Shown: in pieces, positions 1 through 38,042 of the stretch | Numbering within the stretch: position 1 is the first letter of the stretch | Layout of the letters: every line of letters begins with the position of its first letter | DNA from: Microcoleus sp. | GTDB taxonomy: Bacteria > Cyanobacteriota > Cyanobacteriia > Cyanobacteriales > Microcoleaceae | NCBI GenBank assembly: GCA_042408215.1 | Contig: JAYFMW010000029.1 | Span: 1-64,000, forward strand | Reading direction: 5' to 3' | Length of the DNA stretch: 64,000 bases | Made by a program: the position numbers and the translations under genes | Notes under the pieces: generated by a model | Told to the model about the DNA's origin: nothing | The model's database searches: none | Seen by the model: the letters and a program-made list of their open reading frames with translations, nothing else

Positions 1-279
1 AATCTAGAATACGAGCGGGTAAGCAACATATCGCATAACAACGTAGCGTCCGCTGTAGAAACAACCGATTGGACTAACGACGGCTCGTTTCCAGTGTGCA
101 ATTTCACTCAGAATTCCATCAACTTTTTAGACTGGGTAGATATCAGTCAGTTTGTTGCACTTGCTCTAGCAACTGTAGGACTGTTTGTGTTGGTAATTTC
201 TTTATTGCCATCAATCAACCCATTCAATTTATGCCCTGTTCGCATCAACATCAACATTCAATCAGGAACCACAAAATGA
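1..279 (+). CDS. Hypothetical protein, 5'-partial, with C-terminal hydrophobic helix
   Basis: Frame 1 is open from base 1 to TGA 277-279, which overlaps the next ATG (ATGA). Hydrophobic segment FVALALATVGLFVLVISLL. Confidence 0.55.
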   Translation, partial: NLEYERVSNISHNNVASAVETTDWTNDGSFPVCNFTQNSINFLDWVDISQFVALALATVGLFVLVISLLPSINPFNLCPVRININIQSGTTK

Positions 280-785
280 GTTTACAACTACGACTGTTTG
301 GTGGTGGCAATAAAGACAGCCAGCTTGCCACAAGTAACGATGGTGGCCACGCAATCGACAAATCTAAAGTGCTAGCAGCCACTGCACCCGGTGTCATTAC
401 CCCACAAAATCCTGGTAACTTTTCTAGTATCCGTAGCATCCCCGTAGTGCCGGCACCTCGCTATTTTGACCGGGAAGAAGCCGACAGAATCAAGGAATTG
501 GCAAAGGAAAAAACGGACGGTGCAAAGCAGTCTAAGAGAGCCTATGCAGCCCTGATAAAGATTGAAGAAGCCGACAAATCAGTGCATAAAAGTCACCGTA
601 AATATGAAGGTGCAGTGGCTGAGAATGAGTTAGGAAAAAAACGTGCTGATGCTGGTTTGGCTAAAAAGCTGCACGGTTTACGCCCTGGTTACGCCCGTTT
701 AGGACTGGGTATTGACAAAGCTGAAAATGATGCACGGACTCGGATTGATGCAATCAAAAGTAAGTTAATGGGAGGCTCTAACTAA
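276..785 (+). CDS. Hypothetical protein (169 aa, basic, helical C-terminal half)
   Basis: ATG 276 coupled to the upstream stop, with AGGA upstream; stop overlaps next start (TAATG). Confidence 0.7.
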   Translation: MSLQLRLFGGGNKDSQLATSNDGGHAIDKSKVLAATAPGVITPQNPGNFSSIRSIPVVPAPRYFDREEADRIKELAKEKTDGAKQSKRAYAALIKIEEADKSVHKSHRKYEGAVAENELGKKRADAGLAKKLHGLRPGYARLGLGIDKAENDARTRIDAIKSKLMGGSN

Positions 786-1048
786 TGAAAGCGATGTATC
801 TGGCAAATTATTTTGTCGCTGGGTGCATCGCGTCCTCCCTACTGGGATGGACTGCGAGCTTGCATCCGATGGCATTCAAGGCGATTACGTTTTTGGTGGC
901 AACAGTCGCCGTTGTTTGGACTTTATGCTGGCTGCTAGATTTCTCTATTAGTCAACTGCTGAAGGTTTCAGTTAGCGACTTACAAGCAGTTCTGGTTAGC
1001 GGGCTAGCTATGTTACTGATAGGTTTAGGAGTGTTTGTATGCACTTAG
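785..1048 (+). CDS. Small membrane protein (87 aa, about 3 TM helices)
   Basis: GGAGG RBS; almost entirely hydrophobic; overlaps both neighbours. Confidence 0.7.
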   Translation: MKAMYLANYFVAGCIASSLLGWTASLHPMAFKAITFLVATVAVVWTLCWLLDFSISQLLKVSVSDLQAVLVSGLAMLLIGLGVFVCT

Positions 1049-1332
1049 ATTTTGACGAATTATTAGCAGAGTTTATGGAGTTTAAAAAATCAGATTACAG
1101 ATATCTGGTTTCTGTCCGTCGGGATGCAAACACTCTAGAACTCTTTGATGGTGATGGCTCTGAATACCGCATAGAATTTGAGGACTGGTTACAGAGTAAG
1201 GTTTTCGAGGCGATTGAAGACGATTGCGACAGTACAGACTGGGATGCTATCGCGCGTAAGGTTTGTGAGTCACTTGGTGGTGGCTATTACTCACTCAAAG
1301 AGGCGGAAAGTGGGGGGGATTTATGCACCTAA
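1039..1332 (+). CDS. Hypothetical acidic protein (97 aa)
   Basis: AGGAG RBS; overlaps neighbours in the operon. Confidence 0.65.
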   Translation: MHLDFDELLAEFMEFKKSDYRYLVSVRRDANTLELFDGDGSEYRIEFEDWLQSKVFEAIEDDCDSTDWDAIARKVCESLGGGYYSLKEAESGGDLCT

Positions 1333-1868
1333 AAATGTTTGTTTTATCCGGTGCTGCACTGACTTTGTGGCTAACTCCCTTGAGTGCTTTGGATAAGAGA
1401 ATTGGCTGGCATAAAGCCATGCAAGGTGTCAGTCTTGTGCAGGCAATTGCTTGTGCAGTTAAAGCTGGTAATATTGCCTACAGACTGTCTCAACAGGGTG
1501 AGATAGAAGCAATCAAAGAGCGTGCAATTACCGCTGATGTGATTGATGAAATCTCGACATCTGCCTATGTTTCTCAACAGCAACGACAGCAGGAAGCAGA
1601 GCTTATTTTAGCTTCCCCCGATAGTGACACGGAAACTCACCGTAAGACTCTGGAAGCTATGTATACCAGCGACTTACAGGACTGCGCTTCCACTCCCAAC
1701 TCTCCTGATTACCCTGTATATCTGGAAGTTTGTAAGTCCTTAGAAATGGGTAAGTCTACCACTTGGATTATTGAGAACATCCTCAAAATGGGAGGACGTA
1801 AATTCTCAGAAGGCAAGGTGAAATTGCAAGCATTAATCAGTCAGTTTGAGGGGGAAAAGAATGAGTAA
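1323..1868 (+). CDS. Hypothetical protein with N-terminal hydrophobic segments and a small C-terminal helical domain
   Basis: G-rich RBS; 181-aa ORF coupled to neighbours. Confidence 0.7.
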   Translation: MHLKMFVLSGAALTLWLTPLSALDKRIGWHKAMQGVSLVQAIACAVKAGNIAYRLSQQGEIEAIKERAITADVIDEISTSAYVSQQQRQQEAELILASPDSDTETHRKTLEAMYTSDLQDCASTPNSPDYPVYLEVCKSLEMGKSTTWIIENILKMGGRKFSEGKVKLQALISQFEGEKNE

Positions 1869-2914: not shown

Positions 2915-5900
2915 ATGAATACTAACTCAAACAACGGTCAATCGTCAAGCACTGCTGAACTTATTTCTGTAACCAAGGCCAACCCTTGCCCCCACTGTGG
3001 CAAACCAGACTGGTGCTATTCTAAAGGTTCAGTAACCGTCTGTAACCGCGAACAGCCCCCCGCCACAGGATGGTATGCGACAAGCAAGTCAGACGTAAAC
3101 GGTAAGCTTTACTACGCATTGACTGCTGAGAAAAAACCAGCAGAGCGTACAGCAAAAAGCAAGTCAGGCAGTCAAAAGCCACAATCAAGGAAGGCAGTAG
3201 TCCAGAAGGCGGTCACGAAAACAATCCCAGCCCCGACTCCTACTGGACTTAAACTCCTGAAACTACCAGCCCCACAACAGGGTCCTGAACCTCAGAAGCC
3301 TAAATTTTTCCCCAAAGATGTACCTGCGGACGCACTACAAATCAACTACAACTACAGCCCCACTCAGGAAGTTTCGCGGTGGCAATGGCTAGACCCAAAA
3401 AGTCCAAAGGGACGCGCCAAAACTTATCGCCAAAATCACATTGACGGCGACGGCAAACAGGTATGGACTAAAGGTGATTTACCGTGGCCCGCCTACCGTC
3501 TTGATGAAGTAGTCGAGACTTTGGCGGGTATACCAGATGATGAACCCGTGGCCGTTCTCATGCTTGAGGGTGAGCCTAACGTAGAACTCGCGCGCTCTCA
3601 CGGCATCGCAGCCTTGACTATGCAGGGTTCTAATTGGAACCATCCAGAGATAAAGGCAACGGTTGACGCACTACAAGCAACTGGTAAGCAAGTCGTGCTC
3701 ATAATTCTGCGAGATAACGATGACACAGGGATTAACAAGGCCTCAGAGGTTGAGTCACTGTGTCGTTGGGCTCAGTCAGTGTGTAGCGGGCCCTATGTTC
3801 AATGCTTAATCATTGACCCAGTTGCCATTTATCCAGATATCCCAGATAAAGGGGATATTCAGGAGATTTTGGAAAATATGGACATTGAAGAGTTTATTCA
3901 ACGACTTGAAGCTGAAATTCACGCCGCTGCAACTGAAGAAATCAATGACAATTCTTTAACTCTTCACCCGCGCACGCAAGAGGATGTAGTACGTTTGTCG
4001 GAGACTAGTAGTGCCAACGACTACATCCCTGACACAGCACCGACTGCACTGCAAAATTTTGTACAAAAAGCAGAGGACGCACTGTTTGGAGATGGTCTTT
4101 GGGTGTCAATTGGTAGCCAACTGTACCACTCTGTCGGCAGTCATTATGAGTTGCAGCCGGAGGGTGAGGTAAAGCGTCGCATCGGTGACTGGCTGAATAC
4201 CTACTCTGAGAAGGTAAAGGGTGTTTGGGTTCACAATCGGGCAAAATCTAACAACGTTGCCGAAGTCTGGAACTGGGTAGTCGCCAGGACCGCGATTGAC
4301 CCCGACAAGATAAATCTTGATGGTTTGAACTGCTCTAACGGTGTGGTAAAGATTAATCCTGACGGTTCTCATTCACTTGTGCCACACAATCCCAGTCAGG
4401 TTTATACCTATGTGGGTGGCAAGTATGACCCCGACATAGACCCCACAGATTGCGATCGCCTTTTGGAATGTCTCGAACCACAGCAACGTGAAATTTTCAT
4501 CAGGACTGCTGCTGCTGCATTAAATCTGAAACTGGTACGGTCAAAGCTTACTGGTAAGGGGGTTAAAGGTTTACTTTGCTTTGGTGATGGGTCTAATGGC
4601 AAGGATACATTGCGGGCTGTTTTGGCTGCTGTTTTTGGACGGGGTATGACTCCTAAGTCACTGTCCGATTTCAAGGCTTACGATGGCGGGCGAAAGTTTA
4701 CGCTAGCGGGTTTAGAGGGCGGTATCTGTAATTGGGCCTCTGAGAATGCCTCAAACGTAAGTCTCGATAACCTCCAAAGCCTCAAGCAGTTTATTACCGG
4801 TGACCCGATTGATATTGAGCGCAAGGGTAAGGACAGTTATGAGTACAAGCCGACAGCTATCTTCCTAGCCAACTGCAACAAGCTACCATCCATCACTGGG
4901 GGGACGGCTGCGATTGATGACCGCTACGGCATTCTCAGTTTCAAAAAAACCTACAAGCGTGGTGCTGTCGCGTCTCAGGGTGAGTTAGAGGCAGACCCGC
5001 GCTTTAAGGATGACGAGAACTTCATCCTTGAACGGATTGCGCCGGCGTTGCTCAATAAAATGTTGGAGCGGTTTCCGTTGCTGTTGGTTGAGGGTATTGA
5101 CTACAAGGCAACTCGTGAGGCGATGCGAGAAGCTCAAGAAGAAAGTCGTCACTTGTGGCAGTTTGCTCGTGAGGTTGGGCTGGAATTTCACCCAGAAGGC
5201 AAGGTCTACATCGGAGACCTTTATAAAATATTGGAGGACTGGTATCAGGAGAACGGGTGGCTGACTATTGATAGCTCAGGCACAAAAATTAAAAAGTCTT
5301 GGGAAGCTGAATCGCCCTATGACTCACCAGTGAAAAAGTCTCAAGACTTGTATTTGCGCTTGAGGGAGTTGTTTCCCAAGATTGAGCGGCGGATTGATAC
5401 TCACGAGCGTTATGGTCACAAATTTATTTTTGGCTTGAAACTTGTAAATTCATCGCAAGCATCGCAAGGTTCTTGTACAGAGCCAGTTTCATCGCAAGGT
5501 TCATCGCAAGTGACTTGCGATGACACTTGCGATGAAACCCTTGTACAGAAACAACCTTGCTATCCTTGCGATGAATCTTCACTTTTTTCAGAATTTTTGC
5601 AATGGTTCTCAAAACAGCCAGAAAACGAGCGTGAGAAAATGGTAAAAATACTAACCCAACCTCAACCGCAACCTCAACCTCAACCGCAACCTCAACCTCA
5701 ACCAGAACAGCCGACACCACCGACACAGCCCAAGACCGTAACCCTCAAAAAAGGTCTGCGAGTCCGCTACGTGGGCGATAACGCCAATTGCTTAGCACAG
5801 TACGGGAAGCTTGACCTTGTGGTTGACGACATTAATAAACATCGTCAGGTTGCTTGTCTGAAGCCCGATGGCAGTTTTACCACATGGCTTAATCCACAAG

Positions 5901-5938: not shown

Positions 5939-5995
5939 TTGACAGCCGTTTATATAAATGGTTATATAAAAGTATCAACCATTTACATAAACGGC
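5939..5995 (+). promoter_or_regulatory. Sigma70-type promoter overlapped by two palindromic operator-like sites
   Basis: TTGACA 5939-5944, then TTATAT/TATATA after 17-18 nt; CCGTTTATATAAATGG (5946) and CCATTTACATAAACGG (5979). Confidence 0.7.
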
Positions 5996-5996
5996 A

Positions 5997-6785
5997 ATGA
6001 GTACAACACGGAATACATCAGGTAAGTTTGTCGTAAAGTCCGAGCATCCCCGCAAAATCAGATCGGTGAACCTCACAGACAAGGCGTGGCAGTGGTTAGC
6101 GGACGTTGCGAGCTGCGCTGGCATTAGTCGCAACGACTACCTAGAAGCGATGGCAGAGGGTTATGTTCCATCTATGGAAACGGTGAGTGTCGAGATTAAA
6201 CCGCTTATGGAAACGGTAGAGCCTGAACCTAGCCCGATTATGGAAGCGGTGAGTGTCGAGTCTAAGCCGATTATGGAAACGGTAGAGCCTGAACCTAGCC
6301 CGATTATGGAAGCGGTGAGTGTCGAGTCTAAGCCGATTATGGAAACGGTAGAGCCTGAACCTAGCCCGATTATGGAAGCGGTGAGTGTCGAGATTAAACC
6401 GCTTATAGAAACGGTAAAATCTGATTATGACGCTTTACTGGAATCAAGCGCTCGCGTCACCAACAACCTTAAGGAAGAAGTGCAAAGACTGCGCTCTCAA
6501 CTGGATGTACAAAAAGCAGACTGGAGTGAATTGCTGGCAGATTTTGAAAACTCCGAGGCAGTACGCACTGACTTAGTATTGCAGGTGCAGATGTTGCAAT
6601 CAGAGTTGGGGGCAATCAGGACCGATCGCCCTGAGATTCAAAAATCTGTTCTGGCAGTCGCAGATTTTCCAGAACCAAGTGACTTACTCAACCAGTTGAG
6701 GACGCGGCGCAAAAAGTCGCGGGCGGACTTGGCGGATATAGAGGTGATTCTAGAGTTGCTTAATCAAGCTGGCAGTTCGTTGTGA
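5997..6785 (+). CDS. Putative ribbon-helix-helix DNA-binding protein with 11-aa repeats and coiled coil
   Basis: KIRSVNLTDKAWQWLADVASCAGISRNDYLEAMA fits the RHH beta-alpha-alpha pattern; ME(T/A)V repeats; heptad-rich C-terminal half. Confidence 0.7.
   Translation: MSTTRNTSGKFVVKSEHPRKIRSVNLTDKAWQWLADVASCAGISRNDYLEAMAEGYVPSMETVSVEIKPLMETVEPEPSPIMEAVSVESKPIMETVEPEPSPIMEAVSVESKPIMETVEPEPSPIMEAVSVEIKPLIETVKSDYDALLESSARVTNNLKEEVQRLRSQLDVQKADWSELLADFENSEAVRTDLVLQVQMLQSELGAIRTDRPEIQKSVLAVADFPEPSDLLNQLRTRRKKSRADLADIEVILELLNQAGSSL
6168..6414 (+). repeat. 33-bp-period (66-bp dimer) tandem repeat within the RHH gene
   Basis: CCRNYTATRGAARCGG motif at 6168, 6201, 6234, 6267, 6300, 6333, 6366, 6399. Confidence 0.9.
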
Positions 6786-6851
6786 GGGAACCATCACTTA
6801 CCGCTGGAACCGAGGTATTTTGCGAGTAAGACCTGACTACTGCCAAAACCG

Positions 6852-6925
6852 TTGATACTCAGTTGATACTCAGTTTGGTCGTTTTCTCGTCAAACTGTAG
6901 TCACTTGATACTCAGTTGATACTCA
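6852..6925. repeat. Two pairs of TTGATACTCA repeats, likely integrase arm-binding sites of the att region
   Basis: Copies at 6852, 6863, 6905 and 6916, about 90-160 bp from the tRNA 3' end. Confidence 0.6.
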
Positions 6926-6957
6926 ATTTGACCCCCGACTCACCGCTATTCTGAGCA

Positions 6958-7002
6958 ATAAAAAACCCCAAACCGTTGATTTACCGTAGGTTTGAGGTAT
7001 TT
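6958..7002 (-). terminator. Hairpin with T-tract downstream of tRNA-Gly
   Basis: AAAAACCCCAAACC...GGTTTGAGGTATTT imperfect inverted repeat; T-run on the minus strand. Confidence 0.45.
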
Positions 7003-7011
7003 AAAGACAGA

Positions 7012-7082
7012 AGCGGGCAGCGGGAATCGAACCCGCATGATTAGCTTGGAAGGCTAAAGTTTTACCACTAAACTATGCCCGC
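7012..7082 (-). tRNA. tRNA-Gly (TCC)
   Basis: Reverse complement GCGGGCATAGTTTAGTGGTAAAACTTTAGCCTTCCAAGCTAATCATGCGGGTTCGATTCCCGCTGCCCGCT folds as a cloverleaf with anticodon TCC. Confidence 0.97.
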
Positions 7083-37231: not shown

Positions 37232-38042
37232 AGAAACTCAAGAAACAAGAAACTGGGTTTTTATCCAGATTATCTGCTGTCACGCGTCTTCTCTGAAAAA
37301 ACCCGGTTTCTGGCCACGCATCACAACTCAAGAAACTCAAGAAACCGGGTTTTTTGCAGTTTTTGGGTGGTGGAACGACATTCTCGGAAAAACCCGGTTT
37401 CTGGCCACGCATCACAACTCAAGAAACTCAAGAAACCGGGTTTTTTGCAGTTTTTGGGTGTGTAATTATATTTTCGGAAAAAACCCGGTTTCTGGCCACG
37501 CATCACAACTCAAGAAACTCAAGAAACCGGGTTTTTTGCTGTTTTTGGGTGGTGGAACGACATTCTCGGAAAAACCCGGTTTCTGGCCACGCATCACAAC
37601 TCAAGAAACTCAAGAAACCGGGTTTTTTGCTGTTTTTGGGTGGTGGAACGACATTCTCGGAAAAACCCGGTTTCTGGCCACGCATCACAACTCAAGAAAC
37701 TCAAGAAACCGGGTTTTTTGCTGTTTTTGGGTGGTGGAACGACATTCTCGGAAAAACCCGGTTTCTGGCCACGCATCACAACTCAAGAAACTCAAGAAAC
37801 CGGGTTTTTTGCTGTTTTTGGGTGGTGGAACGACATTCTCGGAAAAACCCGGTTTCTGGCCACGCATCACAACCAAGAAACTCAAGAAACCGGGTTTTTT
37901 GCTGTTTTTAGGCGGTGTAATTATATTTTCGGAAAAAACCAGGTTTCTGGCCACGCATACAACCAAAGAAACTAAAGAAACCGGGTTTTTTGCTGTTTTT
38001 GGGCGGTGTAAAGATCTTCTCGGAAAAAACCCGGTTTCTGGG
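37232..38042. repeat. Tandem array of about 9 copies of a ~91-bp REP-like hairpin unit
   Basis: AGAAACCGGGTTTTT...AAAAACCCGGTTTCT inverted repeats with linker GGCCACGCATCACAACTCAAGAAACTCA; solo copy near 54627-54693. Confidence 0.92.

Follow-up and report, generated by a model that had tools for sequence, protein, structure and literature searches.

The window analysed here, a stretch of 64,000 nucleotides of Microcoleus sp. DNA at the start of contig C29, contains a small plasmid-like genetic element that is integrated in the chromosome at a tRNA-Gly gene (Table 1). Within this element, a 16-bp palindrome of the form CCRTTT-N4-AAAYGG is found twice upstream of and eight times inside a gene for a predicted ribbon-helix-helix (RHH), linker and coiled-coil protein.

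Table 1. Features of the palindrome gene and its host element (window coordinates)
Feature	Position	Strand	Remark
Small-gene block c1, c2, c4, c3, conserved in these elements	1..1868	+	no Pfam family
Primase/helicase replication gene, 1020 aa	2861..5923	+	DUF5906; P4-family primase C-terminal domain below cut-off
Four 9-mers and three inverted copies in primase gene 3' end	5451..5573	.	
TTGACA, putative -35 hexamer	5939..5944	+	one base before palindrome copy 1
Upstream palindrome copy 1, CCGTTTATATAAATGG	5946..5961	.	in putative promoter spacer
Upstream palindrome copy 2, CCATTTACATAAACGG	5979..5994	.	2 nt before start codon
262-aa gene	5997..6785	+	arm and predicted RHH, repeat linker, coiled coil, C-terminal helical hairpin
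N-terminal arm (RxxxGKF) and predicted RHH	6006..6161	+	strand centred on S23
Eight intragenic palindrome copies, 33-bp spacing	6168..6414	.	encode predicted-disordered 11-aa repeat linker
Predicted long helix/coiled coil, residues 137-210	6405..6626	+	AF2 pLDDT >90 over most
C-terminal two-helix domain, basic RRKKS loop	6675..6779	+	common to unrelated DNA-binding domains
Attachment-site duplication	6961..7054	.	overlaps 3' half of tRNA-Gly(TCC)
tRNA-Gly(TCC), integration target	7012..7082	-	same site used in L063

The two upstream copies, imperfect palindromes lying 33 bp apart at 5946 and 5979, had been pointed out in a previous sequence-only reading and were found again, as were the eight 16-mers repeated every 33 bp within the open reading frame (starts at 6168, 6201, 6234, 6267, 6300, 6333, 6366 and 6399). 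All eight lie in frame 0 of the gene and encode the peptide P[SLI][MI]E[TA]V. At 3-6 of the 16 positions the coding copies deviate from those in the promoter, but the CCR...AAAYGG frame is kept, with ATAT or ACAT at the centre of the promoter copies versus ATGG or ATAG in the coding copies. TRF describes the array as a 66-bp unit repeated 3.7 times with 94% matches. A weight-matrix scan placed all ten sites of the window within the top 12 of 7,361,866 genome positions, the matrix having been derived from other loci (141 non-coding copies, with one close relative in the training set). Hardly any further copies of the motif exist in the rest of the genome, and most loci of at least 3 kb have neither copies outside the gene nor a detectable regulon on the element; with sites mostly confined to the gene's own locus, there is no obvious regulon.

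The position of the second upstream copy, just before the start codon, is the same in homologs, and 40 of 46 of them have a TTGACA-like hexamer at most 9 nt from the last upstream copy but one. The same reading had the palindromes flank a -10 box. The TTGACA is real, but a sigma-70 scan returned neither a promoter nor a canonical -10 on the + strand, so that this part of the description was an assumption. A common 33-bp phasing of promoter and array, equated with three helical turns, had also been suggested. The spacing is indeed shared, but the promoter pair and the array are separated by 189 bp and stand in different registers. In homologs, the 107 intragenic spacings comprise 64 of 33 bp, 33 of 78 bp and 4 of 66 bp, upstream spacings are mostly 31-36 bp, the distance from the last promoter copy to the first coding copy is 189-195 bp in most cases, and other linker-repeat families advance in steps of 9-21 bp. 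Given the 78-bp gaps and the lack of register between promoter and array, conserved helical phasing was rejected. An assembled RNA-library contig spans part of the gene and one assembled sequencing-run contig lacks one 33-bp unit of the array, neither of which is evidence of expression.

In the AlphaFold2 model of the protein, helices at residues 28-40 and 45-53 are followed by a linker of low confidence that spans the repeats, then by the long helix 137-210 and two C-terminal helices. The coiled coil noticed earlier is supported by the predicted long helix, in which hydrophobic residues occupy 67% of the a/d positions. The RHH-like N-terminus is likewise supported by the predicted helices and by a dimer model, but no significant Pfam or PDB match to the RHH region was found. 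The model of two copies of residues 4-55 scored 0.52 compared to 0.02 for the best control, passing a threshold that was cleared by 20 of 30 proteins with solved pair structures and by 1 of 23 with solved single-chain structures, a pass that was probably helped by resemblance to solved RHH dimers. Contact agreement between runs was at least 97% and pLDDT at least 75. The modelled antiparallel ribbon is centred on S23, V24 and L26 pack on the helices, and I21, S23 and N25 are exposed on the ribbon face pointing away from them. The window protein is thus predicted to adopt the fold of the RHH superfamily, i.e. a strand followed by two helices that dimerizes through an antiparallel ribbon. Database likeness is weak: RHH_4 was matched in 4 of 31 family members (best E 0.0057), a Foldseek search with the window protein gave E values of 3.3-7.6, with NikA (2ba3, E 5.5) and ParG (1p94, E 7.6) among the neighbours, and a weak likeness to the replication-regulatory RHH repressors PF10723 and NF010256 was seen. 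The C-terminal domain, modelled as two helices, has no PDB sequence match, no significant Pfam family and no Atlas match. The arm-plus-RHH module was also observed in other settings, namely fused to the C-terminus of chromosomal proteins of about 300 aa (L146-L160), several of which have a 16-bp RTGTATATACATGG-type palindrome just past the stop codon, and at the head of long PAS-containing proteins (L045, L050).

The element itself belongs to a recurring type with the gene order c1-c2-c4-c3-primase-(tyrosine recombinase)-palindrome gene, which occurs either as small circles with a primase/helicase gene or integrated at a tRNA gene. Of 24 other mapped loci (at least 3.5 kb), 18 have a primase-family ORF or a fragment of one, and four are contigs of 7-9 kb with terminal overlap and no ParA among the listed ORFs. 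In the window, about 230 bp separate the palindrome gene from tRNA-Gly(TCC). The attachment site's 94 nt recur on contig C24 (97.9%), where an integrase-like gene, assigned by eye, lies alongside; window positions 1-1853 match C24 at 99.1% identity. Because of this identity and the duplication, C24 is probably the left part of the element or a sister copy. Repeats of an 11-bp unit, TTGATACTCAG, occur at 6841-6930 between gene and attachment site and again beyond the duplicated site on C24, possibly as integrase arm sites. The direct and inverted 9-mers at the 3' end of the primase gene are likely replication-origin iterons. Similar short repeats, 7-10 per gene, direct and inverted and specific to each element, were observed in the 3' part of the primase/helicase gene in L054, L055, L057, L063, L064, L065, L067, L088 and L116; they are likely intragenic origin iterons and represent a second case of coding DNA built from repeats.

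Gene c1 is preceded by a TTGACA of its own and by a conserved leader that is free of the palindrome. This leader, in which a TTGACA-like hexamer is followed by a structured-looking stretch bounded by GGAAG...CTTCC, recurs in L054, L067, L074, L076 and L109 (downstream of the gene) and on C24 at about 2050-2250; it had no Rfam match at gathering score, nor did the 12 element loci scanned with Rfam. Five loci (L065, L084, L088, L100, L116) contain a long inverted repeat with arms of about 20 bp, some 100-250 nt upstream of the gene, between two palindrome clusters and often just after a small tyrosine recombinase, which might be a resolution site or hairpin. Downstream of the gene, L088 and L089 carry Zot-like, Rep_trans and TraX genes, which suggests that a filamentous-phage-like module has joined the element. 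A search of viral contigs yielded no relative. A tandem array at window positions 37289-38041 (8.3 copies of a 91-bp unit, 94% matches) is unrelated to the palindrome gene.

The impression that no ParA is encoded nearby holds for C29, on which no ParA-family (AAA_31) match was found (18 matches lie elsewhere in the genome), but not for all relatives. A ParA-type protein was 1 of 30 neighbour proteins scanned (L052), and on pCC7120epsilon, which belongs to a standard laboratory strain, the homolog is immediately followed by parA-parB, so this is not always a stand-alone system.

Whether a repeat of this kind is maintained as peptide or as DNA can be read from codon usage. From 84 loci, 81 genes were retrieved, of which 56 remained after dereplication at 95%, and these contain 139 motifs picked by their peptide pattern alone. 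Within the motif, Pro is encoded by CCR in 139/139 cases (background 114/215, 53%), Thr by ACG in 109/110 (67/409, 16%), Leu by CTT in 56/56 (203/1056), Phe by TTT in 64/64 (65/89) and Glu by GAA in 125/128 (616/1072), counts that are not independent events since the homologous genes share ancestry. Conserved RHH codons of the same genes are scrambled, the major codon accounting for 767 of 1256, and among the control residues T27 is ACG in 12/52 and P18 is CCR in 4/49. The substitutions tolerated in the motif (T/M, F/L/I, V/A) are those preserving the palindrome. In a positional test with 36 genes, third positions had a mean pairwise identity of 0.84 within motifs, compared with 0.58 for spacers and 0.54 for the RHH region. 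Codon usage and third-position identity among homologs thus show that what is conserved in the 11-residue repeat is a motif in the DNA, in agreement with the proposal that more than the peptide is conserved.

Homologs have 1-5 non-coding copies of the motif upstream, some of them inverted. The two kinds of copies differ slightly: coding copies relax position 4, which is T in 52% compared to 97% upstream, and the asymmetric, coding-compatible centre ATGG is found in 92 of 142 upstream copies. Most intact genes (30 of 39) have three coding copies. The eight of the window are the maximum among these 39 and represent a recent expansion, and close relatives of the window gene have five or nine. Folding of the array RNA was no better than that of shuffled sequences (z = -0.56), and RNA structure as the conserved property was dropped.

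A second line of evidence comes from the residue at position 25 of the predicted DNA-binding strand. Genes with Asn at this position carry motif A in 46/46 linkers and in their promoters, and never motif B. Genes with Arg, which come from plasmids and genomes of Nostocales and other cyanobacteria, carry palindrome B, CCRWGTAWTACWYGG, in 17/30 linkers and never motif A. Motif B typically occurs twice upstream and in addition at +174/+207/+240, where it reads P[CS][IN]T[RW], or at the stop codon, as in L131, L143 and L154, whose third site is there and not in the linker. Its Thr codon is ACA in 33/34 cases (background 60/246), as opposed to ACG in the Asn group. Among 143 further representatives, 12 of which were not classed as Asn or Arg strand, the A peptide was present in 19 of 25 Asn-strand proteins and the B peptide in none, and B was present in 25 of 106 Arg-strand proteins and A in none; in five Arg proteins the peptide V[IL]H[GE], seen at the protein level only, corresponds to motif B in another reading frame. 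The array is dispensable in the Arg branch, since a linker copy is missing in 13/30 genes and 81/106 representatives. As had been anticipated, the strand residue co-varies with both the palindrome in the promoter and the repeat inside the gene, and the A/B switch is a single evolutionary contrast among homologs related by descent. A third, CCRTGTATATACAYGG-like class of palindromes was observed in the promoters of L132, L145, L214, L229 and L231, whose products have an Arg, Gln or Met strand, a different C-terminal domain and no linker copies.

The window gene belongs to a far broader modular design. Its C-terminal domain was detected in 12 of 301 sampled genomes, all from the host's family, attached to several other N-terminal domains, and a primase gene immediately precedes many of these genes. 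In several other DNA-binding domains, most of which occupy the same slot and are joined to this C-terminal domain, the linker likewise contains repeats of the respective promoter motif. Classes picked by eye include GTTAC with VT repeats (12 genes, pOSC7112.05 among them; means of 4.9 promoter and 5.3 linker copies), GTTGC with VA repeats (four genes; 4.0 and 7.2), GTAGAC (nine genes; 4.4 and 6.2), GTAAGAC (two genes) and CTAGAC (one gene), and further types were seen. In a blind k-mer comparison of promoters and linkers from 10 hand-picked representatives, with D2 left out as its start was not found, the own linker was the best match for 8/10 (k=6, 7) or 7/10 (k=5), with a permutation p <1e-5. 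The failures at k=6 and 7 were one other representative and the window's own gene, the latter owing to the unlike centres of its promoter and coding copies.

In many relatives, GKL[SRTK]A and a stop codon come just after a G GGA AAA/G site, which is taken here to be a slippery site, and the C-terminal domain continues in the -1 frame (L009, L011, L013-L018, L021, L022, L027, L162, L183 and, in the genome under study, C27:7738-8330). This arrangement suggests a programmed frameshift that would give rise to short and long forms of the protein. Headless remnants of the C-terminal domain are scattered over contigs C4, C10, C24, C27 and C28 of the same genome, one of them beside the duplicated attachment site on C24, and look like traces of earlier elements.

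Several known systems share parts of this design, KfrA, StbA/pSK1 Par and lambda O being the closest. KfrA of RA3, RK2 and R751 is described as repressing its own synthesis via a repeated operator over the -35/-10 region and as requiring operator binding for stability (PMC7783346). The window protein resembles plasmid-borne KfrA in having an N-terminal DNA-binding head and a coiled-coil tail, but KfrA has a helix-turn-helix (HTH) head, a single promoter operator locus and the partners KfrC and KorB/IncC (PMC7783346). The window family has predicted RHH or swapped heads, most sites in the coding linker and no such partners in sight, the helix of the window protein (137-210) is shorter and preceded by a disordered linker, and searches for the KfrA family in Pfam and NCBIfam gave no match for the window family. 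StbA of R388 and Par of pSK1 are reported as single-protein segregation systems without an NTPase and with sites in their own promoter; StbA is an HTH protein whose C-terminal part is needed for function and whose stbS site, located upstream of the operon, is made up of 9-bp direct repeats in two groups of five (10.1101/2022.04.29.490116). Centromere-like repeats at the own promoter are a common trait, two in the window and 1-5 in homologs, but compared to StbA the sites in the window are 16-bp palindromes and largely intragenic, the head is predicted to be RHH and not HTH, and a segregation role is only proposed.

The iterons of phage lambda encode the linker of the O protein. O is reported to be a dimeric replication initiator that binds partly symmetric repeats inside its own gene, next to an AT-rich region and with no promoter copies described (PMC5043065, PMC3017604). 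The window repeats are also placed inside their own gene, whereas a distinct primase/helicase, whose gene has different repeats, is taken to replicate the element, and an AT-rich unwinding region is absent across and after the array (GC 0.44-0.53 in 100-nt bins). The family departs from each of the KfrA, StbA/pSK1 Par and lambda O groups in at least one tested feature. CopG, CopB/RepA2, ParG and NikA share the predicted beta-ribbon dimer, with NikA and ParG as weak structural neighbours and no significant match in sequence or fold, and relative to such plasmid RHH repressors and centromere-binding proteins the window protein adds the RxxxGKF arm, the repeat linker, the coiled coil and a lineage-specific C-terminal domain. 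Type Ib/II partition combines an RHH centromere-binding protein with an NTPase; the window gene has no adjacent ParA, and its relatives usually have no ParA/ParM partner. A full-text literature search returned no paper on this family or design, a result that leaves absence unproven given the thin coverage of subscription papers.

Dual coding, a locus-specific motif, co-variation of motif and domain, and the element context are established at the level of sequence. Since palindrome and DNA-binding domain are swapped together in relatives, the protein likely binds its own gene. The predicted RHH dimer would, with high probability, recognize its own palindrome at the two upstream and eight linker sites; strand residue 25 (Asn or Arg) would set the palindrome centre and the conserved RxxxGKF arm would read the shared outer CCR...YGG. 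Bound at the upstream sites, the window protein probably represses its own promoter, and autoregulation fits because the sites adjoin TTGACA and the start codon. The protein may further coat the intragenic array, and the coiled-coil/C-terminal module would then likely act in cis on the element and aid its inheritance. A stability role of the loaded complex, similar to that of KfrA or StbA, is a best guess held with slightly less than balanced confidence, and the reading as a whole (self-bound DNA motif, autorepression, array coating and an inheritance aid in cis), which is the best explanation at hand, is evenly poised.

The case for a centromere or partition role is circumstantial and draws on small ParA-less circles, the KfrA-like architecture and a C-terminal domain kept across swapped binding domains, a conservation that points to an effector loaded in cis. 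Moreover, with the sites mostly confined to the gene and c1 equipped with its own motif-free hexamer, self-repression alone would leave the protein jobless. Counter-evidence to stand-alone partition is provided by the ParA near L052, the parA-parB pair by the pCC7120epsilon homolog, the unphased spacing and the integrated state of the window copy.

It is conceivable, although rather unlikely, that the system serves regulation only. The coding copies would then be auxiliary operators that tighten autorepression by looping, roadblock or titration and damp transcription into co-oriented downstream genes or the attachment site, with a helical tail that only oligomerises. Sites overlapping TTGACA and the start, circular forms that place c1-c2-c4-c3 after the gene on the same strand, the stop-codon sites of L131, L143 and L154, as expected for looping, and the weak likeness to PF10723 and NF010256 are in line with this idea. 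The own TTGACA and palindrome-free leader of c1, however, leave mostly the gene itself as target of repression, and the conserved C-terminal domain, which in many relatives follows a slippery site in the -1 frame, hints at an effector role of its own. An accessory function in replication or resolution, in which the loaded array, adjacent to the iterons of the primase gene, controls copy number, pairs plasmids or acts as architectural partner of the neighbouring tyrosine resolvase, is improbable. It would account for the position of the gene directly after a primase gene or a small tyrosine recombinase, and for extra copies upstream of the recombinase (L065, L088) and flanking the long inverted repeat (L065, L084, L088, L100, L116), and intragenic sites acting in replication have a precedent in lambda O (PMC5043065). 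Yet the primase gene has a different iteron array of its own, no AT-rich stretch follows the palindrome array (GC 0.44-0.53), and most loci have no copies outside the gene.

Very improbable is an origin of the repeats in which the own protein does not bind them, be it by recent duplication or conversion of a promoter element, as the site of another factor or as RNA structure. The 66-bp expansion in the window is recent, to judge from its 94% matches, and the ATGG centre of the upstream copies could reflect copying between sites. Against this speak motif positions that stay fixed while third positions of spacers and RHH drift, a motif that tracks the adjacent binding domain across families and is nearly absent elsewhere in the genome, and an array RNA that folds like shuffled sequence.

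The preferred reading, binding of the protein to the sites in its own gene, can tentatively be extended to a one-gene inheritance cassette, a generalization that is possible but doubtful. Such a cassette would consist of an exchangeable DNA-binding domain, a linker made of its own sites, so that the gene is centromere and operator at once, and a conserved C-terminal effector, often reached via -1 frameshifting, and might cover cyanobacterial plasmids and integrated elements alike. If so, a swap of domain plus linker would change specificity (incompatibility) in one step, and the number of sites would be tuned by repeat expansion.

The family provides a natural bacterial example of dual coding, in which the sequence of a linker is dictated by the likely binding site of the very protein, with many specificity classes. 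It offers ready-made domain-site pairs for recognition studies, such as the single Asn/Arg strand switch with its changed palindrome, and is a possible source of orthogonal repressor-operator parts for cyanobacteria. Should the stability role prove true, it would explain the persistence of small ParA-less cyanobacterial plasmids, and the little-understood class of single-protein segregation would gain a system open to testing.
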